This document shows positions 2,411-61,033 of a DNA stretch of 64,000 nucleotides, piece by piece. The notes beneath the pieces are model-generated. The model was not told the DNA's origin. It did no database searches and saw only the letters and a program-made list of their open reading frames with translations. Within the stretch, counting starts at the first letter, position 1. Every line of letters starts with the position of its first letter. Made by a program: the position numbers and the translations under genes. The stretch is from Eukaryota sp. GEM-RC1 (Eukaryota), in assembly GCA_040285855.1 (NCBI GenBank), contig JAUFOQ010000010.1, positions 124,001-188,000 on the forward strand, in the 5' to 3' direction.

Positions 2411-3118
2411 TAAGGGCTGTTAATTTACTTGACTTGAACCGACTTGGGGGCCTTCAAGTCGAGTTCAAGTGGACTCGACTCAGTCGTCAAGTCATTTAAC
2501 TCAAGTCGACTTGAGGTCGTATAGGATTTGGTGAAGTCGACTTAAACTCGACTCGAGTCGACAAAAATAGTGTAATTAATGGTCCATAAACTAAATGATT
2601 CACAGTAAGCAGAATCTATAATTTAGATACATCGTTTGAGTACTTCATGTTTACACTATATAATTGTGTTCAGTACTTCATCGATTGATGTCGAAATGTT
2701 TGTTCCATAAGGGAACAAGCACTTCCGCGTGTCTTAATGTGATCCGGAAAGCATGACAAGGACTTACCCAGTAGTCTCGAAGATTATAGTCCAACATATA
2801 GCGAATCAAGTAGTATCTAGTGTTAGTCCATCAAATAACGGACAGTAAATAGTGTGTGTAAAAACCTAGTGTTGATGTCGATAAGGATTTACTGGAATAA
2901 AACGGAATTTGAATTCGTGGACAACATCAAATGTTCAGTAGAATTTAAAAAGAAATAAATCTAATACATGTACTGTTCAAAAAATTGAAACTGACGGCCG
3001 TAACAGTATAATTTCCGAAATCGAGATTCATGTCAAGTCATTTAACTCAAGTCGACTTGAGGTCATATGAAAATTGATCAAGTCGACTCGACTCGACTTG
3101 AGTCATTTAACAGCTCTA
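2411..3118. mobile_element. Non-autonomous hAT-like element (MITE)
   Basis: Imperfect TIRs AGGGCTGTTAA...TTAACAGCTCTA. Subterminal AGTCGACT/GACTCGAC repeats at both ends. GTCTTAA is present at both flanks, a partial TSD. Confidence 0.65.
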
Positions 3119-3386: not shown

Positions 3387-5522
3387 GGGATAACTACAAA
3401 ATCCACCTAAGTACAATAAGTTTAATCAAAATCCACCCCAATTGTTTTCACCTTTTTTTGCTTCCAAAAACCACCTTCTTGTAGTCTTCTTCTTCTTCAT
3501 GACAGTTGGTTTAAATCTTAATAAACTCAAGTCCAATGAAGTGATTTCCATCGAAGTGAATCAGACTTATGAATCACGGTGTCATATGCTTCAAATCCTC
3601 CATCAATATGCCATCCAAGAAAACAAAGACTTTGTTCTGGCGAACAACAACAACAAAACTCGCTTCAAAATTGGGTGTGTAGATCCTAACTGTCCCTTTT
3701 TACTGAAAGCGATTTCTTCTGCAGGAACAGAACCATGAGTAGTGACTTCCTTTAATGCACACAACTCTCCCTGTGAAGCTAAAATTAAGACCTCTGTTCC
3801 TCCTAAAGTAGCTGCCTTAATACTGAAGGAAGAATTTAGACACTCTGGAATAGTCTCTCCTACTAGAATGCAAAGAATGTCGGAAATGCCTGTGACCCAG
3901 AACGCGTGTTCTAGAATGATTAAAGAAGCTCAATTATTGCTATATGGTGATAAGCAACACTCTTACAGTCTCTTGCCAAGGTATTTCCGTCTTCTGAAGG
4001 ATAAGATGCCAGGTACGGTGACTGTCATCGAGTCCGGAGATGATGGTGAATTTAGTAGATGTTTTCTTGCTTTTGAAGCATCCATCCAAGGATTTCAGTA
4101 TTGTAAGCCTGTAATTGGTTTGGATGGATGTCACATCAAGAGCCAATATCTCGGTGTTATGCTTATTGCAGTTGCAATTGATGCGAATGGCCACACGTTT
4201 CCGCTTGCATTTTCTGTTGTGGACACCGAAAGCACAGATACATGGACCTGGTTTCTTGACAACTTAAGACAAGTGTATGATTTATCTGATGTAACTATCA
4301 TTTCTGATAGACAGAAAGGTTTGATCAACGCTACCCGAAATGTTCTATCAGATATTCCTCATGCATTTTGTGTGAAGCATTTAGCCGACAACGCTAATGG
4401 AAGAGGCTCGAAAACGGCTAGACCATTCATCTTTCGTTTGGCAAAAGCTAAAAATGTTGCACAGTATGAAAACATCATGACAGAAATGGCAACAGTGTCG
4501 CAATCAGCCGCTGATTACATCAATCGAACTGCCAATCCGGAAAATTGGGTAGAATTCATGTTCCCAGGAAACAGATGGGGCCATACCACAAGCAACGTGG
4601 TAGAATCAGTGAATGCTGCTATTAACGAAGCACGCCAACAACCGATTGTACAAATGTTCGAAACTATTCGTGCTATGCTTGCAAGATGGTTTGTTACAAG
4701 AAGAAAGGAAGCTCGAGAAATCGCATTCCCTCTAGTACCAAGAGCATCTAAGATCTTGGAAGAAAGATTGTTGCTTGTACGAAATCTGCGTCATGTCGAA
4801 GTAGATATCAATGAATATGAAGTTTATGATGAAGGAAGGGTATTCAACGTGAATGTGGAGGACAAAAGCTGTACGTGTTGTGATGCTAAGGAAGGAATCC
4901 CATGTTCGCATCTGCTATTGCTACTTTCTGCTACTGGTTCAAGAGGGATCGAGTACTGTGCTAATCAACACACCACGTTGTTTTATTTCCGAACGTATGA
5001 AGGGAGAATTCTCTCAGTTGATGATGTACAACTTCGTCATTACTTGCTTGATGATGATGTAGAAGGAATTGTGTCTGGTCCACCTATTGCAAAGCCAAGA
5101 GTTGGTAGACCGAAGATTGTACGGATGAAGAAAAAAGCCGAACCATCTGCTGGAAAACCTCGCAAAGATCACAGGTCTTCTGATGAGCCTCCACTAAAAC
5201 GAACATATACATGTGGTAAATGTGGAGGAAAAGGTCATAGCAAGAGATCTTGTACTAGTAACTAAATAAATGTACCTGTAGTTTATATTTCAATCTGTAA
5301 GAAACTAAAGGTATGTAAAAGAGGATACAACATGAAGTACTGTTGGGGAAGAAGAAACGGTGTATGAAATGGAATAAAGTGGAGCAATCACATCATACGT
5401 CATCAGCTCATTTGTGGTTTTTCAACATAGAGTTGAGATAATGTGGATTTTGAATTTTTTTTCTTGAATCTTGGTGGATTTTGATTAAAAATATAGAACT
5501 TGGTGGATTTTGGTGTTGTCCC
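3387..5522 (+). mobile_element. Full-length Mutator-like element (MULE)
   Basis: ~50-bp imperfect TIRs (GGGATAACTACAAAATCCACC... and ...GGTGGATTTTGGTGTTGTCCC). Perfect 9-bp TSD TAATTAAAT at 3378-3386 and 5523-5531. Confidence 0.93.
3499..5265 (+). CDS. MULE (MURA-like) transposase with one in-frame TGA at 3736-3738
   Basis: N-terminal C-x4-C DNA-binding motif, DDE core (GLDGCH, ISDRQKG, CVKH, SNVVESVN), SWIM finger (CTCC...CSH) and C-terminal CCHC knuckle (CGKCGGKGHSKRSC). ORFs 3442..3738 and 3742..5265 are in the same frame. Confidence 0.92.
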
Positions 5523-17450: not shown

Positions 17451-19058
17451 AACTATCAAAATTACCTATATTTACCAATCTTTTCAAAATTAAATATAAT
17501 TCAAATAAAACACACATACCAGTCTTTTCATCATTTTTCAAATACTCTTTCAAAACATGAAACAATTCCACAAGCACATCACTACAATAACGTTCATCAA
17601 CATTATCCCTACCAATCACATCGGTAATGTAACAGTTTCTTATTGTTTTCACTTCCATACTTGATGAAGAATCAGACCGAATACAATCTAGTACATTATC
17701 GACAATTGACTGAATTCCAATAGTTAAGTCCACTCTGAGTTGTTTTGAAGTAGCAACACGATCATACTCCAAAAGAGGCGACAATGATATTGTTTCATAA
17801 GTCACATTGTCAGTTTGTTGATATTCACATATGGAATCACATTTTTCATTTTCGAAGCTTTCAGTCTGAACTTCCTTGAGACAAAATCGTTTTTCATCAT
17901 CAATAAGAGGAAATACCTGGGAACTTTTTCTTTCTGTACCAGCACTGACATTCTTATTTAATAATAAATTCTTCGTTGGTAAAGGGGTTTTCTTCAAACG
18001 GGGAAGTGATGGTAGAGTAATGTTGCCGCGTGGTAATTGAGGAAGAAATTTATTGACACAAATCTCAGGAGAATTTTTGTTAAAAATTGAGTCACAATTA
18101 ATAAATTTGGGAGGAATATTAGTTTCATCTTCTTCAAGTATTACTCAATTGCCAGGGAGATTTATTTTTAATCTAAAAAGATCATGAATGGCTTGTTAAC
18201 ATGAGACTTCGTTTAGGTTTTTGGCCATTTGGTTTGTTACAGAACAGCACGTGTATCTGTAAAAACAAACATAAGGCTAGCTTTCATCATTTGGTCAATT
18301 GTTCAAAGTTCATATATTGTCGTTCAATTTTGCACAACAGTCTTCGAGATACATGTTTGGAAATGTTTAAGGCAAATGGTTTCCATGGCAAAGTCGAACC
18401 ATTACTTTCTCATCTTTCAGATCACCCTGATTCTACTCAGAAACGTGGTGATTTTATTGGCCCTTGGTTGTCATGCCAAGAAATTGTTGTTGATTTTACG
18501 ACCGTTGATCCTTGCAAAGCTTCAGCTATTGCCAACATTTTGAATCCCTCAAATGATCCGCTGAAAGACGCTGAGAACGCCAAAGTGTCTAAGTATGGAC
18601 ATCAAGTTGCTGCATTGAATTCACGAAGACACAATAATATCGTCTTTCAGCCTTTTGCAGTTTCATTGTACGGAAATTTCGGTTCTTCTACCAAGGAGTT
18701 TTTAAGTTTATTTGAAAATTTGTGTTCAGAACTTGGCAAGAAGTTTAACAGATCGTACTGGAAGAGTAAATTTGCTTTTTCGATTTTTAGGTCTATGTAT
18801 AGATATGTTGATTCCATTTTGTCCAAGTTGTTTGGAGGCAACTACTTTTCGGAATTAGGTAGTTCGTTTGATAATTTGTTTTAATAGTGTTTATCTATTT
18901 GTACTTAACTTATTATGTGTTTTTCTCCGCACATAAATCCGTTTTTCTTCTTCAAGTTCATCATTTACAACAATGACACCTTCCAAAGTTCTTAAGAAAG
19001 AACAACATGAAATGGTTATCAGCTGCATGTAGATATCGCCATCAGTGTCAGAGTTCAT
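17398..19058 (-). pseudogene. Hypothetical host gene interrupted by a retrotransposon insertion
   Basis: Removing 18140-18957 gives a continuous frame from ATG 19058 (MNSDTDGDIYMQ...VNDELEEDETNIPPKF...) into ORF 17398..17997. Confidence 0.6.
18140..18945 (+). mobile_element. 5'-truncated CRE-like non-LTR retrotransposon, family C, with 12-bp TSD
   Basis: Cys/His knuckle-like region plus REL endonuclease (CICK...HHLVNC...HNSLRD...RGD...VDFTTVDP...KY). TCTTCTTCAAGT occurs at 18128-18139 and 18946-18957. A homologous copy lies at 57370-57990. Confidence 0.85.
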
Positions 19059-19072
19059 TATCAATTAACAAG

Positions 19073-19720
19073 CAGTGTTGCGCCATAACCGAAAATAAAT
19101 TTCCCATACGCGTATGGGCGTATGGACGTATGGGAAAATGGCAGAATGGCTGACAATGACCATCAATGCATATCTAACAGAATCTTTCCAACATCTCTTT
19201 GCTTCATAATGTATAAGTACCATCTCCTACACTCTCTATGTGTAGTTTCTCAGCCAGGTAAACCTCGTGCTTAAACAATTTGCCATCAAATTAGTATCAC
19301 AAGTATGCTCTGTAAGAGTGTGTGAAAGAGTTTGAGTACCCGCTCATTTATTCATAACAAACGAATAAACACACTTCTTTGTAGTTTTTTCCCTTTATAG
19401 ACCAGAAATAGTGAGACAAGACAAAAAAAGACACTTAAATTGGATCGTGCTAAGAAAACTGGTTTCTATACACTTCAATGGAACCCATGTCAAAAACACC
19501 CAGCAATGGCAGCAGAGACGGTATCCTGATAGTGAATATTTTTAAGAGGTGAAGTGGAGGTTTAGTTAAGTTTATTAATCCATATACTTATTAACATGTC
19601 ATAGAGTGCACGTGTCGAAGAAGTTCAAAAACAGATACATGTAGTCAACGTGCCATACGCGTATGGGTGTATGGACGTATGGCAGTCCATACGTGTATGG
19701 CAAACAATGGCGCAACACTG
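19073..19720 (+). mobile_element. Non-autonomous hAT element
   Basis: 14-bp TIRs CAGTGTTGCGCCAT / ATGGCGCAACACTG. 8-bp TSD TTAACAAG at 19065-19072 and 19721-19728. Subterminal CGTATGG repeats and remnant dimerisation-domain codons (LVSQVCSVRVCER, LDRAKKLVSIHFN). Confidence 0.92.
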
Positions 19721-19803
19721 TTAACAAGAAGTTGGCACAAAAAGTCAACTGTAGTCAGTTTACAGATATTCCTCTCTCAATATCAACTACGATTCTCTCA
19801 TCC

Positions 19804-22800
19804 ATGTCTCGCTGGATAAGCCACTCTTGTTGTTATTCCTCCACGTCCTTTCCAACCATACTTCACTGTATAAGTTGTGGTAGATTGGCTTGGGGTTTGA
19901 CTCTCGCTTTGGATGCTTCCCCCGCTTCAACGTACTCCACGTCCTTTCCAACCTTACTTCACTGTATGAGTTGTGGTAGATTGGCTTGGGGTTTGACTCT
20001 CGCTTTGGATGCTTCTCCCGCTTCAACGTACTCCACGTCCTTTCCAACCATACTTCACTGTATAAGTTGTGGTAGATTGGCTTGGGGTTTGACTCTCGCT
20101 TTGGATGCTTCCCCCGCTTCAACGTACTCCACGTCCTTTCCAACCTTACTTCACTGTATGAGTTGTGGTAGATTGGCTTGGGGTTTGACTCTCGCTTTGG
20201 ATGCTTCCCCCGCTTCAACGTACTCCACGTCCTTTCCAACCATACTTCACTGTATAAGTTGTGGTAGATTGGCTTGGGGTTTGACTCTCGCTTTGGATGC
20301 TTCCCCCGCTTCAACGTACTCCACGTCCTTTCCAACCATACTTCACTGTATAAGTTGTGGTAGATTGGCTTGGGGTTATCCCTCGACTCCGTCTCGGTAT
20401 ATTCCGTTCCTGACCGCAATTATAGTTTCCTTTGCTCAGATGATCCTTTCTGTTGTTTCATCATCTTTTTCTGCTTTGTGTCTCATATTACGTATAGTTT
20501 TCTCCTCCCGTCATCCATTCAAAGAAGACCTCACCGCCGACGGTGACATTGGAGTCCAATCCAGGACCGATTTCCGAATCAGCCTTACAGACTTTGTTGC
20601 CTGATGAGTGGATCGATGATGAAGTTATTGATCAGTATTGTCTGTATCTCTTAAACTTACATAATTATCCTGTTGAATGCTTTATTTCTCCGATTCTAAT
20701 GTTGCACAATGCTGTAGATACAACCACTCAACAATTTGATGTTGTTCTACTCACGAAGTTTATCATACAACAATTGACAAATAATGGTCATTGCCGATAT
20801 TTCATTGCTCCTGTTATTAATAATACAGGTACCAAAGGTTATCACTGGGGGTTGTTGATTATCGACTGTCAACACACAAAGTGGTTGTTCATTGATCCAA
20901 ATTACGACACTAATGATTTTTATCTAGATGAAGAAAACGTAGAATGTCCATCTGGTAGCTTCAATGTGTTCTTATCAACAGTGCATTCAGCACTTAGTGT
21001 GCTTGAGTATAGGCCTATCATTGTACCGGTTACCCAGAAACAAACACCTAATGACTGTGGAGTCTATGTTCTTGAGTATATCAGAATATTTGTACATGCT
21101 TTGAACTTTCGCAATATAGATAACGTTTCAGCTGTAATAGATGAATTACAGAATGCTAACAAATACATTGATGCTGGTTCAGTTCGAGAGACCATTATTA
21201 ATTTTTTTGTACAATCAACGGTAACGACTGTTGATCATCCTGAGTCACGTAAGTCCAAACCAAGAGAGCCATCTGGTGCTACTCCTGCAAAACGAAAATC
21301 AAAAATCAGTCCAGCCAGTCCATTACCACCTACAGTATTAAAACCCGTTCCTGTCACACCTATCCGTGTCTCCAAAAAAATCAGGACCACAGATCCACTC
21401 AGTCAATCAGGTCTTACTCCTCAAACACGAAAACAAAGAATTGTTTCTGAAAGTAAACAGACAATGCCATCTCAGTCACCTCCGTCAATACCTGAAGTGC
21501 AGCCAGAACAAGAACCCAATCAATCACAAAAGTTCTGTCTAATTGAGATAAAAAGTGTGATCTCAGATCCTGAACGCTTGAATCTTAAAGTCGTTCGAGT
21601 TAAACAGGAGCCAGAAGTAGACGAAGAGATTGAATCAACTTCAGAAGGTATTCCACAAATTCAGGATACTACTTTTGAAATTCAGCGTGATCCAGATTTA
21701 GATCCAATTGTGTCAATCTCTCTTCAGTTTACCCATGATAAATTTGCAAATGAAACTCACCTATTCACCCATAATGTTTCAGAAATTTCACTTCCTAATT
21801 GCGTAGTTCACACGTTTACAACTGAAAAATCAATGTTAACAAATTTCATTACATTTTTAAATCTTAACAAGCCCAGTTTGTTAATAAGTTATGATTGGCA
21901 TTTAGATACTTTTCCGTTTTTTGTATCACGATGTAAAAAATTAGAAATTGACATTGATTATACAATTGATGATTACATTTCTTCTCTTCCATCTTGGTTC
22001 CATAGATGGTGCAAACCAACGGAAATTGGTCCTTTTTATTCCCTTGACTTGAATTCAGTATTGAAGAAGTTGTATGTCTTTAGAAGAGGTCGGTTTTTGG
22101 AAAACGTGACAACAATTATGATGGACATGAATAATCATTCAAGAACATTTGAAAGTTTTGACAAGGAAAATATCTTCCTTAAGAGAATATTTCATTCTTT
22201 AGACAATCCTCTAGTGTCAGATGAAGAAATGAAGGTTAAAACCGAAGAACGTCAAAAAAAAGCGCCATCTGTGAAACTAAAACCCAAGGCTGTTATGGAG
22301 ATTCGATTGTTAGCAGAATTAACAAAACTTAATGAACTTTGGGAATCTAAAACTTCGAGAACCACTTCGAGAGCCACTTTGTTATCGAACTCAATCAATA
22401 AGTTGTTTCTAATACAATACATTCTCTTTGATCTTCTCGATGAAAAAAAGCAAAAATTAAGAGAACGACCACCAATGAAGGCGGTGAAAAACGATTAGAT
22501 AATGTTGTATCAAAGACTAAAGCGAATTGGATGGAATCTTGTGCTAAGAGAGCTCATCAAGTCAGAGTTCGTGGTACACATATGTTGAAACATTTTTTCG
22601 TTACTAAGTTTCACAACTCTCTAATTTTCGACAAGGTCAAAGAGATACTACCTCCCACTGTTAAAGAAGAAATTGAAACAGACACTGAAGTTTCAGACAC
22701 TGAACAAACAGAAATTTTAAGTGAAGAGTTTGTGCCTCAACAATTAGAAGAAGAAACTGAATTGCCTGTGACTTCGGACCCTGATTTTGGTTTGGATCGT

Positions 22801-25722
22801 AAAATTGAATCCGAAATTTCAGAAGAAGACAGCCAAATTTTAGAAGAAGGCAGTATTGAAAATGAAACTGGTGAACCTGAACTTGACCTTTTTACTAAAA
22901 TTCAAACTACCAAATTTGAATTACCAGACTGGGGAGCTTACTTTAAGTTGGGTCCAATGGGACAACTGTTGGCCATGATGTGGATTCCAAATCACCAATT
23001 TTTCAACAGTACTGATCATATTAAAACTGTGGAAAACTCGTTAAAAAACATCATTTCTAATGTTAAAACAACAACTACAAAGAAGGAGTTCGCCCAACAC
23101 TTCCTATCAAACTACATCCCTCTGTTAGAAACTGCTGGTGAAATGGTTGGTAAAGATAGGATCGTGTTTCCAAGTGGACTATATTTGGCTAATCCTCTCG
23201 GTTACGTTGCAACCGAAATTATTACTAATTATAAGAACAACATGAGCCAACACTTTCATGAGTATGTTTTTCAAGTCTTTAACTTGGTTACTCAAAAGAA
23301 AGAGAGAATGGAAGCTCTTACTGACAAAACCCAAAAACAAGAACTCTGTCAAAGGATTAATGAAGTTAGAGAACTGATCGTTAATGGGGAAATTTCCAAA
23401 ATTAATTTTGATGACAAGCAAGTTTTTACCAATCCGGAATCTCACTTGAGTATATTATTCTTCAATTATTTGTTTAATTATTTTGAAGGGAAGATGGAGA
23501 AAACGATCTACTATGCCGAAAAGAGTGATCCGTTATACTTTTTAAGTCATGCACTGTATTTGAACCGTCTCATTGAAGACTATTGTCCTGGTGTAAGAGC
23601 AAACAATCCTTTCCCATTGTCTAAATCTTTAATTCCAAATCATATCAGATTTGATACACAATGGTTTCATTTAATATTTAGGAAGGATATTCCCCATGCT
23701 GTTAACTATAATGATGTACGGAAAAATATTTGGGAATCCATTTTAAAACCAGGGGGGTATTCCAGAGTCATTATCCTATGACTTTAAATACACTTCAATT
23801 TCGTCAGACGGTTTAAGTTGTAGTTTATTAATGATGCGGAAAGATTTACTTGATGAAAATGGAAATACTCGTGAAAACGTAATAGCAATCGATCTTGCTT
23901 CAAATGAGCGTTATATTGATTCCTTAGGTATGACGGAAATTGAAGAACTGAATTTAAAATCTAAGAGAATTGTTGCTGTTGACCCCAACCAACATGATCT
24001 AATGTATTGTGCAAGTTTAAAAACTGATGAGGAAGAGAAGTGTGAGAAATTTGAAGTTGATGAAACAGAAAAATTGATAGAAAATGCAATGGTCAATGCT
24101 TGTGAAAATGTTACAGGAGTTGATCCAGATTCCTCAGGTGAGAAGGAAATTGAGCCCAAGCCAGTTACCCTAGTTAGAAAAAGAAAGATTGCTCCATTGT
24201 CTTCTAAAAAAAGAGGAAGTTTGAAAAAATGAAAAAACAATTAAATGATTGGAAGCAAGACACTAACCCACAACCTGTAAAGTGGAAAAATCGTGACAAA
24301 TGGAAGGTGTTCCGATACACTGCTGGGGAGAGAAAGGCAGATATTAACAAATCTAGATGGAAACCAAGAAAAAATCAGCCATCACAGTTCCAAAAAAATT
24401 GACAAAGAAACAAAAAAAGAAAAAAAGCTAAAAGGAACGAAAGAAAAAAAGAAATTTTGAAAAAAGTGAAAGGAAACGTGGCAACAGAGGAATTGTCAAA
24501 TTGACCGAAAGCGAACGATTACAGAGGTACTCAACTGAGTTTGAAAAGAGTGTGTGGAATGGTCAAAAAGTACTGGATTCCTACAGTTCTGATACTCCAA
24601 GAAGAAAATCATGCAAATTGGAAGAATTTTCAAGGTACATGGTTAACAATGAAGTTTTCTGTGCATTAATGAGATCAACCACAACTGGAAAAGCAACTGC
24701 TGAAGGATTACCTAAAAAGAAAGGACCATCTAAGAATCTATCTAAGAAAGGACCATCTAAGAATCTATCTAAGAAAGGACCATCAAAGAAACTACCTAAG
24801 ACAGGACCAACTCAACAAATACCTGCTGCAGCTGAAGGTCTTTATGAAGAGAAATTTTTTAGACGTAGACGCCTTACCCAATATTCAAGAAAAGAACGAA
24901 GTGAGCAAAACTTGGTCCACAGATTAGCTCTCCAATATGGTGATCCAGATGAAGTCGTTGTTGGTTTTGGGGATTGGAATGACGCTCTATTCCGAAGAAG
25001 AAGGGGTAAGGCAAGTACAGTAAAGGGTGCTACTCTTCGAAACTTACTAAGAAAATTTGGATTTAAAGTTTTCTTAGTTGATGAACTTATGACCGGCAAA
25101 TGTTGCTCTGCTTGTGCTGATGAAAACCAGGAAGGTATATGTTCTAGTCCTGACTTTGTCAAAGTCATTGATCCTCTATGGAAGAAGAAGTTACAGAAGG
25201 AGGAGAAGAAATTGAAAAAAGAAATTATGGAACACAATCAATTAGACCATGTTGTGAAACGTAATTTTGATGATGAATGGACCAAACAGTTGCCATTCAT
25301 GAAGGAAAGATTGAAGAGCAAAAAAGTCTCACCATGGGGCTTAGTTCAGTGTGCTAAATGTCATGTCCTCTGGAATAGAGACTTCAACTCTGCTTTTAAC
25401 ATTTATAACATTGTAAATGGAATTATCCAAGGTCAAGGTAGACCTACTGTCCTCGAGAGACCAAAATCTCAAACAATAACTATCGAGGATGGTGGGATTA
25501 CAGATCAGGTTCCCAAGAAGAAGAGTGTGAGTAAGTGTCAGTTTTGTCATATGGAAGGCCATACAACGGCAAAGTGTCCTCAAAGACCTGTGCCTCCTAA
25601 AAGTCCCTCGCAAATGTAGTGAATGTAGGCAACCAGGACATGATAGAAGAAATTGTCCAAATAAGGCCCAGAAAGATGTACCCAAAGACTCACAAGTAGA
25701 GAATGAAGAACCGGAATCCTGA
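19804..25722 (+). CDS. Frameshifted polyprotein: repeats, 2A, Ulp1/SENP protease, degenerate PolB exonuclease, Fanzor1-like RuvC nuclease, two CCHC knuckles
   Basis: Protease: HWGLLIID, FIDP, QKQTPNDCGVYV. Exonuclease-like: DPIVSIS...FTTEKSML...KPSLLISYD. Fanzor: ISSDGLSCSLL, RuvC-I IVAVDPN (D 23981), FRYT, FGDW, FLVDELMTGKCCSAC (E 25083), CAKC..LWNRDFNSAFNI (D 25380). Knuckles: CQFCHMEGHTTAKC and CSECRQPGHDRRNC. Frames join at 20551, ~22490, ~23755, ~24210, ~24370-24460 and ~25600. Confidence 0.85.
19840..20377 (+). repeat. 96-bp tandem repeat, ~5.6 copies, in frame as a 32-aa unit
   Basis: Units start at 19840, 19936, 20032, 20128, 20224 and 20320 and encode STSFPT(I/L)LHC(I/M)SCGRLAWGLTLALDASPASTY. 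Confidence 0.97.
20480..20569 (+). other. 2A/StopGo-like ribosomal skipping motif, split by one extra G at 20551
   Basis: GAC CTC ACC GCC GAC GGT GAC ATT [G] GAG TCC AAT CCA GGA CCG reads DLTADGDI-ESNPGP, matching the D(V/I)ExNPGP consensus. Confidence 0.8.
24713..24810 (+). repeat. 27-bp coding tandem repeat (KKGPSKNLS) inside the Fanzor region
   Basis: AAGAAAGGACCATCTAAGAATCTATCT repeated about 3.5 times. Confidence 0.85.
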
Positions 25723-26901: not shown

Positions 26902-28414
26902 AAGGAACAGGAAGTTGGCTTCAGAAAAAGTAAATGAACTTTCGGTCTGGTGCATTTGTATATTGTTCCTGTGTACTGACTTTTACACACTTCTAAATAC
27001 GGATGCCCGTAGTAACGGTTTGATGATACTTATTCACATTGTTTCTAAGCGTTTTTGGCTACTGTTCTAGTGTTGCTTGAGTTTTCAGTGACATTAAAAC
27101 AAAACAAAACAAATAAATACCAAATTAACAAGTGAACACAAATCCAATTCGTTGTCAATTATGACCATACAATCTGCCTAATGATGTCCAGTGAAACAAA
27201 TATTTCACTGAATGTTTCATCGTTTACTGAGTTGTAACCATTACATTACTATAAGTATTTGTTCTTCTAATTAGCATACTAATTCAGGACTTTGAACATG
27301 TCTAGAATTATCTTCTATCTGTCATGAAACCTAACCAGGTTACTACTAGAAAGGTTCACTTCCTTTTCAGTAGGAACCTTCCTAGTAGTACACTGAAAGC
27401 TACTGAAACAGTCCCGTTGAATCGACTTCACAACAAGGATGTTCCTGTTCAGCACTGTGATTTAATCCACTCATTATTCACAATTAAATATTAAAATTGG
27501 TACTTTTTTTGAGACACATATACCAAAAACCAAACGGCAGAGAAATTCAAATTTTTGAAAGCATCATTTTGTTCTTAAATGCCCGATCTACCACAATTAT
27601 CCGCAACTGCTCTGCAGATACGTCAGAATCTTGAAAGACTTTTTCTCTGCCTGTGCTGGAAGCACCCTAGATCAAAAGATATCTTCATCCAATGCCCCAG
27701 ACGGAGATAAACCGAAATACCATGAAATACGACAGTGGACTAACAAAATCATTCACAACTCAGCAACCGATCTTCGGAAAGAAAGAGGAAAAGCTAAGGA
27801 ATATCAAGACTTCTTGAAGTATAAGAGGAGTTTCAAGTAATCTGATCTCTCCCCTTTCTATCCTCGAAGAAATCAGTGAACAGTCTTTGCACAGTCCTCA
27901 GTTTCTTCTTTGTACATCACTTCTACTTAATAAATTGCCTTGTCCTTGGTGAAAAGGTCTGTTTTTCAAGACACTTTACATTTCTTCACCTCTTTCAAGG
28001 ATTAGTGAAGTATCTAGATACATGTATCAAGAACTTCACATCAAATAGGTTTTATATCAAACAAGACAAAACGGGAGAGCCAGAAGGAACAACAAAAAGC
28101 TTTCTCACTGATAAACAATGAACAAAAATGAGATAATAATTAATAATTGATTGTATAAAACGTTTTTTGATTTTTTGGAACTGATTTCAATGAAATTACA
28201 GTTACATGTACACGTAGGTTGTTATCTTTCCATTCAGGTCATTAATTCAGTTCTAACTTCTAGTTATGTTATTATTGAGAAGTCTAATATGATGAAATTT
28301 GCGAAAAATGTTCATCCAAACAAGCCCTTTGAAAACCGTTTCCACAGAACAGTATTTGTTTGACACTGTTTAAAATTGAAAAATTTCAACTTACAAAGAA
28401 CTACTAGTGCTTCA

Positions 28415-30650
28415 ATGACTCACATCGATTTCCCAGACAGCTTCTTATGTCCAATACACATGGGTTTACTTCTTGATCCCGTTGTTTTGACTTGTGGCCA
28501 TTCATTTTGTAAGGAATGTGTTCAACAGTGGATGATCCACAAGCAGACTTGTCCTACATGTAGAAAACCAACTCAGGGTCGACATCTTGCAAAGAACTAT
28601 CAACTTAGAGATCTCATTCGTGATGTACTTCAACATAATGTGATACGACCAACAGATCTCAAAAAAGTGTCTCAAATGATTCGTACACCACGCGCTACTG
28701 TTGATGTTGGTATTTACAATAGACGTGAAATCATCTGGAAGAGGCCATTCTATTCTGAAGCAGACATTGAAAAAGTCAAGGAAGCCGTTTCCAGTATCCA
28801 CCGTACCTTCAAAGCTCTAAACTCTCCTAGTAATGTTGTGAATGTATTAGGTATAACTCTTGATCCTCCTGGTATTGTACAAGAACGTCTGAGTTGTTCT
28901 CTTCAAGATTTCTTCAACTCAAAGACGCTCATCAGTGAAGACAAAGCCAATATCATCATAGAAGACATAACTTCCGCTCTCCTATCTTTTCATACTGCTT
29001 CTTTTGTCCATCGAGACATTTCTGCTGGAAATGTATTGCTACAAGTACGTAACCATGACATCATACTTGCTAAACTTGGAGATTATGACGATTCCCGTGC
29101 ATCCGATGCCACCCTAACTCAATCTACACTCGGAACAGTCGCTTACATGGCCCCAGAAGTACTGTTGGGGAAATGTCTCAAAGCCAGTACCGAAGCAGAC
29201 ATCTTCTCTCTTGGAGTTTTGTTCTGGGGAGTCTTAACTAACAAAGATCCTTCTAAAGTCGTTTCCATATCCGCCCGCCTTCAAGCTGATAGAATCACCA
29301 GACAGGGTTCCGCTCTAATTGACTTAGACTTACTGTCAAGAAAATGGAAAGTATTGGTCAGATCGATGGTTAGCATTGAACCCAAGGAAAGACCAAAAAT
29401 AGACACCGTACTTGAGAATGTCAAACGATTGCTTAATGACGTGACGATAGGACAAAGTAATACTTCAGCTGAAGAATTGTACAGTCGTGGTCAAAGATAC
29501 TATAACAATGGAAAATATGCTCTGGCTATACATTGGTTTACAAAAGCTTCTGCTTTAGATCACGCAGAAGCCATGTATAAACTAGGTTTTTGCTATTATA
29601 CCGGAAAAGGGACAGACGAAGACCCAAAACAGGCAGTTATTTGGTTTCAAAAATCATCTTTTTTGGTAATTCTCGTGCTATGAATGCCTTAGCTGAGTGT
29701 TTTAAAACTGGGAAGGGATTCAAGGAAAAGACAATGACCAAGCTGTTTTTTGGTATGAACGGTCGGCTTCCCTAGGCAATACTAAGGCTATGTTTACTCT
29801 GGGGCTGTGGCTTAGTTCAGGGATAAGAGTTTTAAAGGATTTGAACAAGGCTTTTCAATGGTTTCCAAAAGGCTGCTGATTTGGGTCACGCGTATTCAAT
29901 GTATAATTTAGGGTCTTGTTATTACAATGGACATGGAGTTGCAAGGAATTATCAACAAGCAGTTCATTGGTATACAAAAGCTTCTGATAATGGCAATGCT
30001 GAAGCTATGTTTTCATTAGGAAAATGTTATTTATTTGGTCAAGGAGTATCCAAGAATTTTGGACAAGCCGTTCATTTGTTTAGAAAAGCTTCTGATAATG
30101 GTAATGCTGAAGCCATGTTTTCATTAGGTGATTGTTATCAATTTGGTATTGGAATTTCAAAAGATTCAATTATGGCTATTCATTGGTATAAAAGAAGTGC
30201 AGATGCCGGCAATTCTACTTCAATGAATAGTCTTGGAAATTGTTATTATAATGGTGTTGGAGTTTCAAAGGATTATAAGCATGCAGTTTATTGGTTTCCA
30301 AAAAGTCCTCTAGGCTAGGTAATGCTGAATCAAAATCTAATTTAGGCAAGTGTTATTATAGTGGTAATGGAGTTTCCCAGGATTTCAAAAAAGCATTTGA
30401 TCTGTTTAAACAATCTGCAGACCTTGGGTATTCTGATGCAATGTACTTTGTGGGTTACTGCTATTATAATGGAAAAGGAGTGGCAAAAGAGTTTGAAAAG
30501 GCCATTCTGTGGTTTGCAAAGGCTGCAAAATTAGGTAATTCTTATGCTCGCGGTATACTTCAAAACTATTACACTTTAAAAGGTGGACAAAATTTAATAT
30601 TTTGGATACTAATCTTTTCGCCACTGTTTTTGTTAAGGATGTTTCTATGA
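28415..30650 (+). CDS. RING finger, protein kinase and Sel1-repeat protein, frameshifted in the Sel1 region
   Basis: RING (CPIH...CGHSFCKEC...CPTC), kinase (HRDISAGN, DYD, GTVAYMAPE), multiple Sel1 repeats (LG.CYY.G.GV..D...A..W) and a hydrophobic C-terminus. Confidence 0.88.
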
Positions 30651-36942: not shown

Positions 36943-37175
36943 GTTGTAAATAATTGCAATTTTCTGTTTGTATATTTGTGTATTCTTTATTTTGGGATTG
37001 ATATAAATTTGTGTTACAGTATTTTCAGCGATTTGAAGCAAACATTAAGTACTTGCAGTAGTTGTGTTGTTTAAAAGGAAAGGTTTCCTTGATTCCAATC
37101 GGATTTGTTTCCAATTGGTCTTTTTCCATTCAGTAACATTAGTTTCTTGTCTCATTTGTTCCTTCGTCCTCTTCT

Positions 37176-40100
37176 ATGGACCTCTATACTTATACCAAAG
37201 ACCTACAATGCAAACATCCTTTTCATACAATTAAATATAAACGATCGCCAATATCGCTCCGCTTTAAAGACAGCAGTCTCGAAAAGCGCTTCCGAGGTCA
37301 TCTCTCCTCCACCAGAGGTTCCCACACTCGCATCACCACTGCTCTCCTGGGTTTCATGTTCATCGTTATACAGCTCTTTGCCCAGTTCCATTTCTCCTTC
37401 ACAGATCCTTTTGTCTACTTCCTCATCGGATTGGAACTTTGGATCTTCACCATGCTCTGTACTTACAAGTCCTGCTCCCCCCTCTACTTTTTCGCTGTTT
37501 TCACTGTCGTGTCATCACTAGCTGTCACCACCTTCTACATTTCCCCTTACCACGGTCTATTCACTCTTCTTCTTCCTGTCATACTTCTCTTCACTTCCGA
37601 TACTCTAGCTTGGTTCCGAGGGTTCCTCTTTATTACAGTCATCACTATCATCAACGTAATCCACGTAATTACTTACAAAACTTCTTTCCAATTCAAAGCT
37701 ACTGTCACCACGAGTCTGGTGGCTTTTGTTTTACTTAATTTGTTGTTACATAGATTTGCGGAAGTCCAAGTGAGAAAGTTTTGGACAGAGATAATTGAAT
37801 TAGGAAAACTCAGGAAAAGATCTTCCACTTTGTTGAAGATGATCATGCCAATTAAGGCTTGGAATAAAGATCTTTCAGCCTTCCAATGTGATAACTCCTG
37901 TGTTATTTTTGTTGAAGTCGTCGGAATTCCAGATGTTGACGTGTTCAAAGCCCCTTCAGAATATATTCTAATTTTGAATAGAATTTTTAATTTAATAGAA
38001 GATTTGGCTAAGGAATATGGAGTATCCAAGCTCAAAACTGTCCAACACGTGTTTATTGGGACAACAGGAGTTGATGAAAATTTAAATTCTCCGAAACAGT
38101 CTAAAAATTCAAAAGTCAAAAAAGTCATGATTACCAATTCCGAGCTCTCTCGTTCTCGATTGCTTTAAGATACGTGATGTCTAACCTAAATAGCTCTGCA
38201 CTTTCCGTTTCGGGAGAACCAATCAATCAGTTAGGGGTCAAGGTCGGAATCTCTTTTGGGCAAGTTGCTGCTGGGGTGATTGGAAGTGATAAAGTACTTT
38301 TGACATTCTCGGAAATACTGTAAATTATGCATCTCGACTCTCTAAATTTTCAAATTTTAATGAAATATTTGTTTCACAATCGTTTTATCTCACTTTTAAA
38401 CAAATTTCTGATTCAAAAACTTCTAGTGTCTGTTATTTCGAAAGATCTAAAGCGCCCGTTCCAATCAAAGGTATTGGGGCAGTTACCGTGTACAGGGTGG
38501 TGGTTAAAAACTCAATTAAAGGGGCAATCATGAAGCATTGTCGTCTTTTACCAAATTCTTTTTGGATTGATTTTAGATTTTCAAAACTGGCACAATTCAG
38601 CAATTATTTAAAAAATTCAGACAGAAGAGCTGCTTACTCTCCGGTTCGAAGTCGTCGACACTCACTTCCAAATATTGAAATCTTTAATGATGACGTATTT
38701 GATAGTCTAGAAGGAATTCCAAAATCTCAAAGTTCCTCCAATTTTTCAAATCTTTCCAGTGAATTATCTACTGGATCTAATTGTGGTTCAAAATTTCGCC
38801 TTAATAATTTTGAAAAATCACATAGTTTTATAAATATTGAGAAAGCTGTCGAAAGGGCTCATCATCGATTATCAGTCAGTCAAAATTTGGCTGAAGAAAT
38901 TCATGTAGATGCACCTCCGCAAAAAGCGAAATATATTTACAATTTTAAAAATATTCGTTCCTTGGCCCTTAATGATTCCTTTTCCCACGCTGACAGTGAT
39001 AATTCCTTAGATTTATCATTTAGAAATTTTGATTTTGAACGATTTCAAAATGCTTTTCTTGTTTCAAAAATCTCGGATCTTGATACCATGGAGAAAAAGC
39101 ATCTGGTAAAAAAGTCAACGCATTACTTCTTGGAAAATATTCTTGTCATTGCTTAATGGCAATTTTGGATTTTTATCCAGATTTTTAGCAAATTTGACTG
39201 GTAGTTCGTTGCAGAATTCTTCACTTTCTGAGTTGAATTTTGAAAATTTTGTTAATTCCAACAAGTTTTCAATTTGGTACAGGATTTGGCTTTTCGTTGC
39301 ACTTTTCTTTCCTTTTTTACTTGCAGAATACCAGTTTTTTTGGGACGTTGGATTTTCCACTGTTAAATACTTTGTATTTGGTTCTTCTTTATTCTTTCCT
39401 TTATCATTTGTCTTTCTCTGGATTCCCTTATCTTTTAAATATTGCGGCAATTTTTCAAAAATGTTGGAACTCAAAATTTTCAAGTACAATATGACCTTAA
39501 TTCATTATTCTTTAATCATTTCACCGTTGATTTCTCTTATTGCTGTTGATTATCTTTCTGATGCGAGAAGCAAAATGGTTTTTTCTTGTTTTGCTGTAGT
39601 ATCTTCTATATCATTTGGAACTTTCTTCGGTGCATTAGGAATCCACGAGACTTGGTTCAAGAGACACGTCATGATTACGTTGATTGCAATCATTTTTGAT
39701 CTATTTACATATGGATTTTCGTTCAAACTGAAGTTTCCTTCTCATTTTGATCTCTTTGCCAGCATGATTTTGGTTTTTGGTCTGATTCTAGGTGCTTTCA
39801 AGCTGTGTTTACTTTCACTTAGACGTCAGCCCACAATTGTAACCACAAAGCTATTAACTCATTCATTTGAAAGATATCAAATTCTATTATCAAGTATTTT
39901 GCCAAAACCTTTGTTAAATCAAATCACAAATCATTCAAAAGTTTCCAATATTTCCATTTTTTCATCTCTTCGACCTATTTTATCTCCATCTTTTAGCAAT
40001 TGTACTATTATTTTCATTGATGTTGCATCTTTTACTTCCTATTGTGCTTCAAAAAGTCCCAAACATGTGTTTTCAATGCTCAACGAGTATTTCAATCATT

Positions 40101-40586
40101 TTGATCAATATATTGCTGAATCTCACTATGTTTCCAAAACTTCGAACTATTGGTGATGCCTATGTGGCAGTGGCTGGACTTGATGGTAGTTCGCTTGAAA
40201 CTCATATAACCGACGTAGTTAAGTTCTGTGTATTGGCAATCAAATCAGTAATTGAGCTCAGTTTCCTTAGAGCAGAAGCTCTTCAGGTCAGAATTGGAGT
40301 CGATTACGGTCCTGTTTTGGCAGGTTTCCTTGGAAGTCATTTGATTTCTTATGATCTCTTTGGTCCGGTAGTTTCTAGAGTTTTTGAGCTTCAGGAAGAA
40401 TGTGATTTAAATCACGTATTATTTTCCGAACGTGTTGCAGAAGTGGCTGAAAGCTCAAAAAGTGACTATCAAGTAACGTTCAGTTCTAAAAATAGAAACG
40501 GTCGGCAATTGAAAAGTGTCACGGATTTTGATGGTACTTTAACCATGTTGTGTGGAAATTCGTGTTCTTGTCATTCAAATATTTAA
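37176..40586 (+). CDS. Membrane-bound class III nucleotidyl cyclase (TM-cyclase-TM-cyclase), frameshifted
   Basis: Two TM blocks. C1 has CVIFVEVVG...KLKTVQHVFIG...VKVGISFG..AAGVIGS (degenerate). C2 has TIIFIDVASFT...LRTIGDAY...VRIGVDYGPVLAGFLG..YDLFGP. Confidence 0.85.
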
Positions 40587-40714: not shown

Positions 40715-43700
40715 CTAAATTCGGTACCCAAAATGGTAGCCTCCTAAAAACAAACAGTAATACTGAGAATAATTCCAAGCGACTTCATCATTATCCGGAA
40801 AAAGATTACACTGTACCAACCTTGTACAGTTTCTAAACTAATTGAGGGAAATAGAAAGGGATATTCTGATAAACGGAAATTTATTTTTGTTTGTTTCCTG
40901 CTGAATTACTGGACAATTCTGAATGTGTATGTAGTCATCGTCGCAATGCAACTTTTAGACATGTAATTAATTGCCCAAAATTTATTCACTTTCGTTCTGT
41001 TCTGCGTAATGAAATATTTGAAGTCTTTATTCGGCACCAATAAGGTAACCTTCCTACAAACTATGAAAAAAGGCGTAATGATGTCAGAAATGTTACATTA
41101 GAAATGTTTAAGGCCCATGGATTTCATGGCAAAGTTGAAGATTAATTTAGTAAGTTGGGTCTTGATATAATTAATAATTCTCGTCGAGGTGACTTACATG
41201 GTCCTTTTGTTGATTCTAGTCAAATTATCCTTGATGTTACAACAGTTGATCCATGTGGTTAAACGGATGTTAACGGCTTAAATTCAAAAGGTTTAATCAC
41301 CTAAAAACACCCGAAAACAACAATATATCTTTATTCGGCACCCAATAAGGTACTAGTAACCTTCCAACAAACTATGAAATTTTGAAAACAAACAAATAAT
41401 ACTAAAATTATATCCAAACGACTTCATCACCTCCTGGTAAAAGATTACGTTTATCAACATTAACCTTCACACCAAACTTGTACAATTTCTTAATTAATCT
41501 AGAGAAATCGAAAGGCATATTCCGAAATATGGAAAACACAAAACGGTTTTTCCATTCAGCCATTCTAAACTTACGCTTCTTTTCTTTACACAATTCTTCG
41601 AAATCCTGGAAAAATTGATCACCAGCAGGACTAATAGATCCAAAAAAAGAAGCAGCAAAAGGTTGAAACATAAATTTGGAATATGAGTTTCTATTTAATT
41701 CTTCTACTTGAGAGTCATACTTGGAGTGTTTGAGCTTTTCAGCAGCCGTTAACGGACTATAAGACGAATCTAATATCATACTAACACAAGATTTGTTACA
41801 AACATCTACTGTAGTAAAATCCATTAATGATTGACTCGATTTGAGCCACGGAGTATGGAGATCCCCTCTTTTTGATCAGCAAATTCATTTTCTGAAAGAT
41901 GAATCAAAACTGGTTCAACTTTAGAGTGAAAACCATGTGCTTTAAACATGGAATAACAAGAATCACTCACACCATCATGAATTACTGCACGTAGATGAAT
42001 AAAAGAACGACAATTAATTAAATGATGAAAAACACCATTAGCTCCACAAGAGCAAGTTGAATAGTTTAATAAATTTGCAGGCCAAATAGCCAAACGAAGA
42101 CGCATATTAATCATCCAAGCTTCATCAGATAGATGTAATCCAAACACCTTTGGAATTTAAGAAATAGATCCAGAAGGTCCACTATTACAAAGATCAATTA
42201 AAAAAGCAGCGAACTCGGGACTATTAGTTTTAGCCAAACTAATACGATTATTAAAGTCCAAGAGTTCAAACTCCTTTGTCAATTTATTTTGCAGTTTACA
42301 TACAGCAGGTGGTAGAGATGAAATATTTTTTGAAGGACTCCTTCAAATGAGCAGGGAACAAAGATTTCCCCATTTCAGGAGACAAAGATAATGTAAAATA
42401 CAAAAAAATGTTTTGTCTCTTAAAGATACATAACGTCTAAAGACGTAAACAAAATTTAACAATACTATTCCATGACTTGGTCTTGAACCCCAAAGAGTTT
42501 CTTCAAAATTCCGTCGAAGTACTGAAAGATTGAACGAAATACGAGTTTCGTAAATAAAACGAGACGATCCTTCCAAAAACTAATGATAAACTTCTTGCCA
42601 AATTCGCAACACAATTGGTTAAAAGATGACAAGAACGTTTGAGCTGCAGAACCTTAATCCGTTAATGGTTGAAACACCAAAGCATTATGTCTTTGTGAAT
42701 TCTAGTGTCACGAGAAACGAGAAACGACTAGTAACTTTATTTGAAGACACCAACTTACCACGTACAATGTACAATAACCAAAACTAGAAGACACTAGTTA
42801 AAGTATCTGAACTAAACTCCAACTGACTAGAATCAAACAATTTAGCTAAATTAGAATTTATTAACTAAGCATCAACCGAAACAAAGCAAAAGTCAATCTT
42901 GATAGCCAAAATCCCGCATTGAACACCTTTCCATTCTCTGAACACAATTTCCTAAAAGAGACTAAAAACTGTTGTTTTGAAGGACCAATACTACCATAAA
43001 GTGTGACACAGCAAAGGGCTGAAAAAAGACAATTATATCTATCAGCATTTAGCCTAATAAATGAGTTCCCATATTTTGTGGATCTATTAGTTCTGCAGGT
43101 GATCAATTTTTCAAGGAAGAACTTTGGTGGAGAAAAGAAGCGTATGGCTAAAACTCTAAATTTAGAATGTTACAATCGTCTTGTGCAAACTGTTTAGAGA
43201 TGAAGGGGGCAAAAACATATCAAAACAAAAGCTTTGGAAACACTTGACAGAGAACATCCCTGGTCAACTGTACTTACCTATAACTTCTGTAGAAGCTTTA
43301 ACAAAATTCGTACTGACTTTCTTGCATTTTTGTTATCAGTGGATCCTACTGCATTGAACAATCACATCTTCTCAGATCCTCCTCTTGCTGGTATTGGTTT
43401 CACTTCGTCTAAATGGTGGACCAAATCTGCTTTCATTGGTGGTGGTAAGAATTTTGTCTTTGAGTTCTGTAGACGGTACCCAAGTCAAGAAAATCTTCTT
43501 GTTTCGACAAATAGTTTTTTCTTGGTAAATTTGAGATCAGAATTGTATGATGATAATTTCATTTTTAATCTTGATTTCAAAAATGCCTTTAATTCAGTGA
43601 GTCGTAAATCTGTTTTAAAGTGCATTCAAGGATGCTAAAAATGAAGTTTCTCCACTGAATTCTTCAGAACATTACAAGAGAAACAAATATGATGAACCAT

Positions 43701-60100: not shown

Positions 60101-60134
60101 AAAAACTTTTTCGTTTTAAATGTACCTTTGTATA

Positions 60135-60985
60135 TAGTGGACCTTCTGGATCTATTTCTTAAATTCCAAAGGTGTTTGGATTACATCTATCTGATGAAGC
60201 TTGGATGATTAATATGCGTCTTCGTTTGGCTATTTGGCCTGCAAATTTATTAAACTATTCAACTTGCTCTTGTGGAGCTAATGGTGTTTTTCATCATTTA
60301 ATTAATTGTCGTTCTTTTATTCATCTACGTGCAGTAATTCATGATGGTGTGAGTGATTCTTGTTATTCCATGTTTAAAGCACATGGTTTTCACTCTAAAG
60401 TTGAACCAGTTTTGATTCATCTTTCAGAAAATGAATTTGCTGATCAAAAAGAGGGGATCTCCATACTCCGTGGCTCAAATCGAGTCAATCATTAATGGAT
60501 TTTACTACAGTAGATGTTTGTAACAAATCTTGTGTTAGTATGATATTAGATTCGTCTTATAGTCCGTTAACGGCTGCTGAAAAGCTCAAACACTCCAAGT
60601 ATGACTCTCAAATAGAAGAATTAAATCGAAACTCATATTCCAAATTGTGTTTCAACCTTTTGCTGTTTCTCTTTTTGGATCTATTAGTCCTGCTGGTGAT
60701 CAATTTTTCAAGGATTTCGAAGAATTGTGTAACGAAAAGAAGCGTATGTTTAGAATGGCTGAATGGAAAAACCGTATAGTGTTTTCCATACATCGGAATA
60801 TGCCTTTCTATTTCTCTCGATTATTTGAGAAATTGTACAAGTTTGATGTGAAGGTTAATGTTGAAAAAAGTAATCATTTACCGGGTGGTGGTGAAGCCGT
60901 TTGGATCTGATCATAGTATTATTTGTTTGTTCTTACAATTTCATAGTTTTGTAGGAAGGTTATCTTGTCGGGTACCGAATAAAGA
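60135..60985 (+). mobile_element. 3' portion of CRE-like family A
   Basis: ORF 60172..60495 is identical in protein sequence to 41824..42147. Ends in the family 3' UTR with AATAAAG. Confidence 0.85.
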
Positions 60986-61033
60986 TTGTCCATTCAAGGT
61001 TTTTCAACTTGCTTTGGTAAATTGTGTTCTGAG

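Follow-up and report, generated by a model that had tools for sequence, protein, structure and literature searches.

A conserved 2A/StopGo motif in a multi-copy Fanzor1 family probably separates a variable leader from a protease-exonuclease-Fanzor protein

The DNA analysed here, referred to throughout as the window, is a stretch of 64,000 nucleotides of Eukaryota sp. GEM-RC1 (contig JAUFOQ010000010.1, positions 124,001 to 188,000). A predicted 2A/StopGo element lies in it between a repetitive leader and a series of protease, exonuclease and nuclease domains, and the features of this region are listed below in window positions.

19073..19720, no strand: hAT-like MITE of 648 nt with inverted ends and an 8-bp target-site duplication (TSD), a separate element upstream of the leader
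19780..20550, plus strand: open leader frame of 257 codons, the start of which aligns with the leader starts of the sister gene models P0003 and P0004
19839..20377, plus strand: 5.6 copies of a 96-nt tandem repeat, which the leader frame reads through without a stop as 32-aa units
20440..20517, plus strand: ATG 42 codons before the skip site, with a hydrophobic stretch that is signal-like in sequence
20518..20569, plus strand: predicted 2A/StopGo element of the DLTxDG class, F-K-E-D-L-T-A-D-G-D-I-E-S-N-P-G/P, with the predicted skip between 20566 and 20567
20551..20552, plus strand: GG where the sister proteins imply one G, a copy-specific +1 break
20567..21229, plus strand: protease of the Ulp1/C48 type that most resembles SENP8/NEDP1; triad at His 20843, Asp 20894 and Cys 21056
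21230..21535, plus strand: Pro/Ser/Lys-rich linker with basic stretches, from its sequence
21536..21949, plus strand: PolB-type 3'-5' exonuclease domain with an altered ExoI acidic pair (Pfam PF03104, E 2.6e-06)
22492..25619, plus strand: Fanzor1 nuclease, with a REC match at 23167-23688 and RuvC residues D 23981, E 25083 and D 25380

The MITE is bounded by the TSD TTAACAAG, with copies at 19065-19072 and 19721-19728, and we presume it to be hAT-like from the 8-bp TSD rule. Its inverted ends measure 13 bp, and palindromes occur in its subterminal regions at 19104 and 19653. When the MITE was removed, the longest terminal inverted repeat of the Fanzor element was 9 nt, with shuffles giving 8-12 nt; no transposase was found between 18.9 and 26.3 kb of the window, and no reverse transcriptase, APE or RLE endonuclease was detected by Pfam in the ORFs of the element. 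A search for an omegaRNA at the Fanzor 3' end, conducted on the window sequence alone, gave a fold z of +0.53 and no Rfam match. That the element is mobile is suggested by the 44 gene models of its family, described below, which lie on many contigs.

The other domains found in the window (Arf-family GTPase, eIF4E, SET and dynein) are eukaryotic. It also holds an uninterrupted 508-codon MULE transposase with a SWIM finger at 3739-5265, and many repeat fragments that are 85-95% identical (18119-18884, 41327-42203, 57373-58014, 60114-60986 and others), which we take to resemble the C-terminal part of an RLE-type non-LTR retrotransposon; the fragment at 18177-18884 had no Pfam match. Pairs of short-repeat clusters lie about 0.6-0.8 kb apart (61534-61657 with 62359-62486, and 2419-2542 with 3032-3088) and are possibly the ends of further small DNA elements.

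The original prediction had proposed that a 2A/StopGo motif, split between two reading frames by an extra G, lies immediately before the protease, and the split motif was confirmed both in the window and by the intact peptide in P0003 and P0004. The DNA at 20527-20569 reads GAC CTC ACC GCC GAC GGT GAC ATT G GAG TCC AAT CCA GGA CCG; the leader frame ends in ...RHPFKEDLTADGDI and the adjacent frame gives ESNPGPISESALQ. One surplus G at 20551-20552, where either G of the GG could be the additional base, separates FKEDLTADGDI from ESNPGP, so that the core D(V/I)ExNPG/P is in frame only once one base is discounted. NPGP occurs once in the six-frame translation of the window, and about 0.001 matches to D[VI]ExNPGP would be expected there by chance with one indel allowed anywhere in the motif. 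The upstream context is an open frame in which an ATG precedes the skip site by 42 codons, and it is predicted to be translated and thus to supply at least about 30 aa. A minus-strand ESNPKP within the 96-nt repeat was ruled out as a 2A, since K replaces G and D[VI] is absent. The ORF starts given in the original prediction did not stand: the ATG at 19663 sits inside the separate MITE and hence is not the start of the element, and the one at 20543 is a GTG, a codon not accepted as a translation start in this eukaryote. The in-frame ATGs outside the MITE are at 19804, 19966, 20158 and 20440.

Sister copies were sought among protein sequences. A word search of 836 candidates returned three matches, namely the window's own protein, P0001 and P0003, and a cluster look-up added P0004; a search of 1.84 billion representatives returned 22 matches, and cluster look-ups brought the total to 52 proteins. 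Eight of these were set aside, being the window's own protein and seven generic Ulp1 proteins, none of which contains NPGP. The remaining 44 family gene models carry one and the same label, Eukaryota sp. GEM-RC1, which is placed among the skoliomonad metamonads (PMC11316075), and all of the family evidence therefore consists of gene models of one labelled organism. P0003 and P0004, which are 93-96% identical downstream, carry RHPFKEDLTADGDIESNPGPISESALQ unbroken in a single frame and are colinear with the window, leaving no room for a model intron at the motif. In the comparison of paralogues at 20551, the sisters carry a single G by protein sequence and an unbroken peptide.

NPGP is present in 23 of the 44 family models, which are annotated proteins, so that broken 2A copies are under-counted; 22 have the canonical octamer, and one further model, P0046, has NLGP. 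The models that lack the motif mostly begin downstream of its expected position. A protease start could be found by pattern in 26 models, with NPGP no more than 22 aa away in 22 of them and NLGP in one; the other three protease starts come after a linker, that of P0006 belonging to a second protease domain. The canonical form accounts for 22 of 24 visible motifs, the degenerate versions being DTE in P0001 and NLGP in P0046. The DLTxDG motif upstream was found in 17 of 21 models, the rest comprising two that begin inside it, one with DTE and one with HLT. Across ten pairs with protease domains 22-43% identical, the 15 residues at the skip site were 80-100% identical; among representatives the protease domains have 20-43% identity, and the region 21-44 residues upstream of the skip site was 8-25% identical where comparable. 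In a protease tree of 22 rows, from which P0018 and P0020 were left out as too short, the 2A is present in all six deep protease lineages, and the deepest (PFVTE/PDLIE) keeps the motif despite a different upstream context. Those positions of the motif that vary (A/M/T/I and I/V) are the ones tolerated by the viral class too. Judged from these sequences, the 2A motif appears to be under selection or constraint in the family; recombination between copies, rather than selection alone, may lie behind part of its identity.

Searches beyond the family were negative within their scope. Two size-filtered searches found no long relatives at 1,135-3,240 aa or 693-2,000 aa, which is weak evidence, and two protein scans of viral contigs found no relatives. 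Among 62 loci with a 2A motif in viral and metagenome contigs, none encoded a relative of the protease, exonuclease or Fanzor (E < 0.01), and a second organism with the 2A-protease-exonuclease-Fanzor architecture was accordingly absent from them. One metagenome contig of 1,527 nt (L044) carries two 2A motifs 218 codons apart in a Pro-rich PPLTxDG context and is unrelated to the Fanzor family by tblastn.

The window copy of the element has six frame breaks and no stops in the 1,940 codons read between them. The five other than the GG are all in Fanzor, at about 22490 (A5), at 23752-57 (G6), at about 24205 and twice within 24360-24431, and they fall in or beside runs of at least five identical bases. 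The test on zero stops is of moderate strength, with P(0) = 0.04-0.34 under assumed indel:substitution ratios of 0.1-0.3. The neighbouring RING-kinase-Sel1 repeat gene (28364-30520) has four frame changes in about 700 nt (29633-30315), and a membrane cyclase gene with two cyclase domains (37143-40586) is divided among several ORFs, with a +1 break at about 40135 inside a Pfam match; indels are thus common in the window outside the element too. A gap between two Na/Ca-exchanger ORFs was discounted as an error, being a GT-AG intron. The assembly from which the named sisters derive was made with MinION and Canu (PMC11316075). A test of the TCCAA/TTGGA error context found the word in 5 of 12 break windows, with an enrichment of 1.02 in the window, and in none of the 29 gaps that separate repeat copies; at several sites more than one base could be the extra one. 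The change from G to GG makes a short run, atypical of a long-homopolymer error. The window also has ATA at the position of the sisters' first Met, with the MITE just upstream, which would fit a truly dead copy. Taking these observations together, we regard the extra G as a likely assembly error, with a real inactivating mutation as the possible alternative.

The original prediction had also allowed for a regulated frameshift at 20551, and programmed ribosomal frameshifting as a control on access to the 2A and protease now appears highly improbable. It has in its favour the single point that the break falls inside the motif in the window copy, against which all 23 NPGP-bearing sister models are in frame (as annotated proteins, with the under-counting of broken copies mentioned above), no X XXY YYZ slippery heptamer occurs in 20480-20600, the downstream sequence forms no stable structure (fold z = -0.62) and five further breaks lie in the same element.

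The leaders that precede the 2A in different family members are unrelated tandem repeats, with periods of 26/27, 27, 32, 33, 38 or 42 aa, or have no repeats at all. Pfam matches to the repeat leader of the window were dismissed as artefacts of repetition, as no stretch of it passes alone. Each of the leader types A, B and C is found with two or more protease lineages, the starred branches of the tree forcing 2, 3 and 2 changes, respectively, and the window-type exonuclease is found with two protease types; leaders and exonucleases paired with several protease types indicate that modules have been exchanged, with breakpoints near the 2A. In 15 of the 19 models whose leader could be used, a Met stands 28-61 codons ahead of the skip site. 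Leaders of types A and B end in a hydrophobic segment that lies 21-26 aa ahead of the skip site and has a 19-residue hydropathy of 1.4-2.4, most of them with a Met 42-47 codons upstream, and the ATG at 20440 with its hydrophobic stretch is common to the window, P0003, P0004, P0008 and P0018. The leaders of type C, P0011 and P0020 are not hydrophobic (0.56-0.97). Since the same leader types turn up in gene models that differ in accession and contig size, the leaders travel with the element, and the 2A of the window lies at least 750 nt inside its own leader frame. The suggestion in the original prediction that skipping could free the protein from a host ORF at the landing site was therefore not supported, and rescue from host ORFs was rejected as the main role.

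Directly after the skip site lies the protease, which matches Pfam PF02902 (E 1.4e-06) and has the His-Asp-Cys triad of clan CE. An AlphaFold model built from the Pro had a mean pLDDT of 82.5 and was ordered from its first residue (pLDDT about 89), with the 2A directly preceding the first helix, which upholds the original placement of the motif at the protease boundary. The model aligns over its full length with NEDP1/SENP8 as best match, followed by Ulp1; Foldseek matched NEDP1 2bkq with E 2e-09 and TM 0.59, and an atlas comparison also favoured NEDP1/SENP8, so the resemblance to SENP8/NEDP1 is that of the best atlas and Foldseek matches, at 17% identity. Tandem protease domains occur in P0007, P0009, P0026, P0034 and P0006, and the second, where visible, has no preceding 2A. 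Viral clan CE proteases process themselves at Gly-Gly, and no candidate site for such self-processing was seen at the domain borders. The basic stretches of the linker at 21230..21535 are, by sequence, a possible nuclear localisation signal. Proofreading exonucleases of the PolB type have a D-x-E acidic pair as their ExoI consensus, which is not preserved here (FCLIEIKS in the window, FCLIHVQS in P0039), and the exonuclease domain is thus likely inactive as far as its sequence indicates.

The downstream ORFs of the window match the structures of SpuFz1 (8gkh), GtFz1 (9cer) and PpFz1 (9cf0), the SpuFz1 matches having E values of 1.6e-07 and 8.1e-06 with homology in REC and RuvC; the RuvC-I ORF searched alone had no PDB match. 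All three catalytic residues (D-E-D) are kept, and the Fanzor1 also carries a C4 zinc finger and a C-terminal zinc knuckle (25530-25600, after RuvC-III). Its E lies six residues before the zinc finger, the location described for Fanzors (PMC13565253). A 27-nt repeat insertion is present between RuvC motifs at 24717-24809. That protease, exonuclease and Fanzor form one reading frame was borne out by sister copies that run without a break to the Fanzor start: P0039 and P0026 have leader, 2A, protease or proteases, exonuclease and Fanzor start in one frame, the alignment of P0039 with the window Fanzor ORF reaches residue 170 (38% identity), and the exonuclease-Fanzor junction is crossed in frame by nine models. 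From that point the next ORF of the window continues into the region matching the solved Fanzor1 structures. None of the sister models is full length, the longest having 1,098 aa, and their end points are scattered. As no model extends to RuvC, we infer the full protein of about 1,680 aa from sequence, by assembling the fusion from P0039 and the window. Just past the junction (equivalent to about 22600), six of the eight models that reach LKHF (P0025, P0026, P0028, P0033, P0034 and P0035) exit the frame at one place, the frame being kept in P0039, P0040 and the window; a T-run error that recurs systematically or a lesion common to these models could account for this, as could, with less likelihood, genuine frameshifting that gates Fanzor.

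The motif belongs to StopGo motif 4, which is defined by DLTxDG with D at p12 and S at p15, and a tested viral example of which was nearly 100% efficient in reticulocyte lysate (PMC12846837). In 39 distinct contexts from viral and metagenome contigs, 11-14 of 17 positions match the family 2A. Sixteen residues before the skip site Phe is found in 15 of 16 family contexts, while outside the family the same aromatic position is Phe in 4 and Trp in 20 of the 39 contexts. Related class B peptides in which W was changed to F had lowered activity, still detectable in 5 of 7 (PMC12338488), and by this analogy the Phe in place of the class-preferred Trp may lower the efficiency of skipping. The 14-mer of the family has one listing in the supplement of PMC12338488, as untested and unclassified; no GEM-RC1 entries were found in the supplements of PMC12338488 or PMC13405545.

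We consider it likely that this conserved 2A of a multi-copy Fanzor1 family drops a variable leader and leaves one protease-exonuclease-Fanzor protein that starts with Pro, and release of the protein from its leader is the best reading of the 2A from the sequences at hand. Translation would start upstream in the leader, often 28-61 codons before the skip site, and the skip between Gly and Pro would yield a leader that is discarded and is often hydrophobic, together with an enzyme of about 1,680 aa with an N-terminus independent of the leader. The 5' part would in this way be free to gain repeats and to be swapped between copies with the enzyme unharmed. By analogy with known families, the protease would remove NEDD8 or SUMO, and the Fanzor would cut guide-matched DNA in a homing-like manner and help the element to persist; removal of NEDD8/SUMO-type modifiers has been proposed for the Ulp1 domains of transposons (PMC2836005). 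Drop-off or ER sorting may add control of dose (PMC4981915; PMC13405545).

Two other explanations of the motif were weighed against leader release. The 2A might act mainly as a dose limiter or sorter, where drop-off keeps a toxic nuclease-protease scarce or the hydrophobic leader sends unskipped product to the ER. Type A and B leaders, with their hydrophobic end 21-26 aa before the skip site and mostly an upstream Met, would suit this role, and there are precedents in the 2A signal sequences of sea-urchin NLRs (PMC4981915) and in a 'reduction' class (PMC13405545); however, the leaders of type C, P0011 and P0020 are not hydrophobic, and the motif falls in the virus-like DLTxDG class rather than the Leu-rich one, so that we hold it unlikely as the main function. 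Dose limitation or sorting is compatible with leader release as a second effect. More doubtful still is that the motif is a relic which does not skip on host ribosomes and is kept uniform through recombination between copies. The shuffling of modules near the 2A, the degenerate versions in P0001 (DTE) and P0046 (NLGP) and the replacement of W by F would all agree with a relic, but the motif is canonical in 22 of 24 visible cases, varies only where the viral class also tolerates variation (A/M/T/I and I/V), and is retained by the deepest lineage (PFVTE/PDLIE) in a different upstream context.

Under leader release, the gene models of the family overstate the N-terminus, and the break in the window copy is not to be taken as regulation. 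A more far-reaching proposal, which we put forward tentatively and judge a shade short of even, is that a Fanzor1 element has adopted an RNA-virus-type StopGo as a universal joint, in front of which any leader may stand and behind which several NEDD8/SUMO protease modules may follow, with the active enzyme always delivered. If true, this would be the first RNA-guided nuclease produced in the manner of a viral polyprotein that brings along a ubiquitin-like protease of its own, and StopGo would be seen to operate in metamonads. In addition, the family offers a natural experiment on what N-terminal 2As contribute to mobile elements: its nearly fixed 2A is combined with at least six unrelated repeat leaders on one side and six protease lineages on the other, which allows the skip rate, drop-off and targeting to be compared directly.

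No 2A in a Fanzor element was found in full-text literature searches, in the main texts of the Fanzor papers or in the 2A surveys, and no protease-exonuclease-Fanzor fusion was found by term searches of the main texts of PMC3627910, PMC10711439, PMC10432273, PMC10530073 and PMC13565253. The natural 2As in the surveys (including bioRxiv 10.64898/2026.09.24.754024) come from viruses, reverse-transcribing elements and some cellular genes. A 2A in retrotransposons is thus already known, and one in a Fanzor element was not found reported; the virus-class 2A predicted here would add elements with an RNA-guided nuclease to those that use translational recoding.

Compared with known systems, the family 2A has the hexapeptide class, the octamer, p12 = D and p15 = S in common with viral StopGo motif 4 (PMC12846837). 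Limnipivirus B1 2A1 also reads PFK.DLT.DGD.ESNPGP, with F as in the family, and picornavirus examples match the family 2A at 11-14 of 17 positions (PMC11512398). In contrast to viral motif 4, which lies between capsid and replicase domains, the family 2A is in a nuclear DNA element of a protist and is placed near the N-terminus, before the protease and nuclease. Among mobile elements, 2A-like sequences are known in the non-LTR retrotransposons L1Tc, Ingi, CR1, L2, Crack and Rex1, about 40-80 aa from the N-terminus (PMC3708506), a distance close to the 28-61 codons between Met and skip site in the family, and Dualen/RandI and Symbiodinium ORF2p combine a 2A with N-terminal Josephin or OTU deubiquitinase domains (PMC13405545). 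These 2As, like that of the family, lie near the N-terminus of the one long protein of a mobile element, sometimes with a ubiquitin-like protease domain; the family, however, has no reverse transcriptase or APE, carries C48 protease, exonuclease fold and Fanzor1 as its cargo, and has interchangeable tandem repeats for leaders. Solved Fanzor1s have REC and RuvC homology, the D-E-D triad, the spacing of E and zinc finger and the RD motif in common with the window nuclease, and lack the 2A and the roughly 650 aa that the family adds at the N-terminus (a protease, in some copies two, and the exonuclease fold). The fusion ties Fanzor to the repeated acquisition of ubiquitin-like proteases by DNA transposons: Ulp1 is carried by Ginger1 and Mutator, and OTU by some Helitrons, so that in these, as in the family, a ubiquitin-like protease domain is fused to the protein of a DNA transposon (PMC2836005). 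In Ginger1 and Mutator, however, Ulp1 is joined to a transposase (C-terminally in Ginger1), whereas in the family the protease, nearest to NEDP1/SENP8, stands N-terminal to Fanzor and after a 2A.
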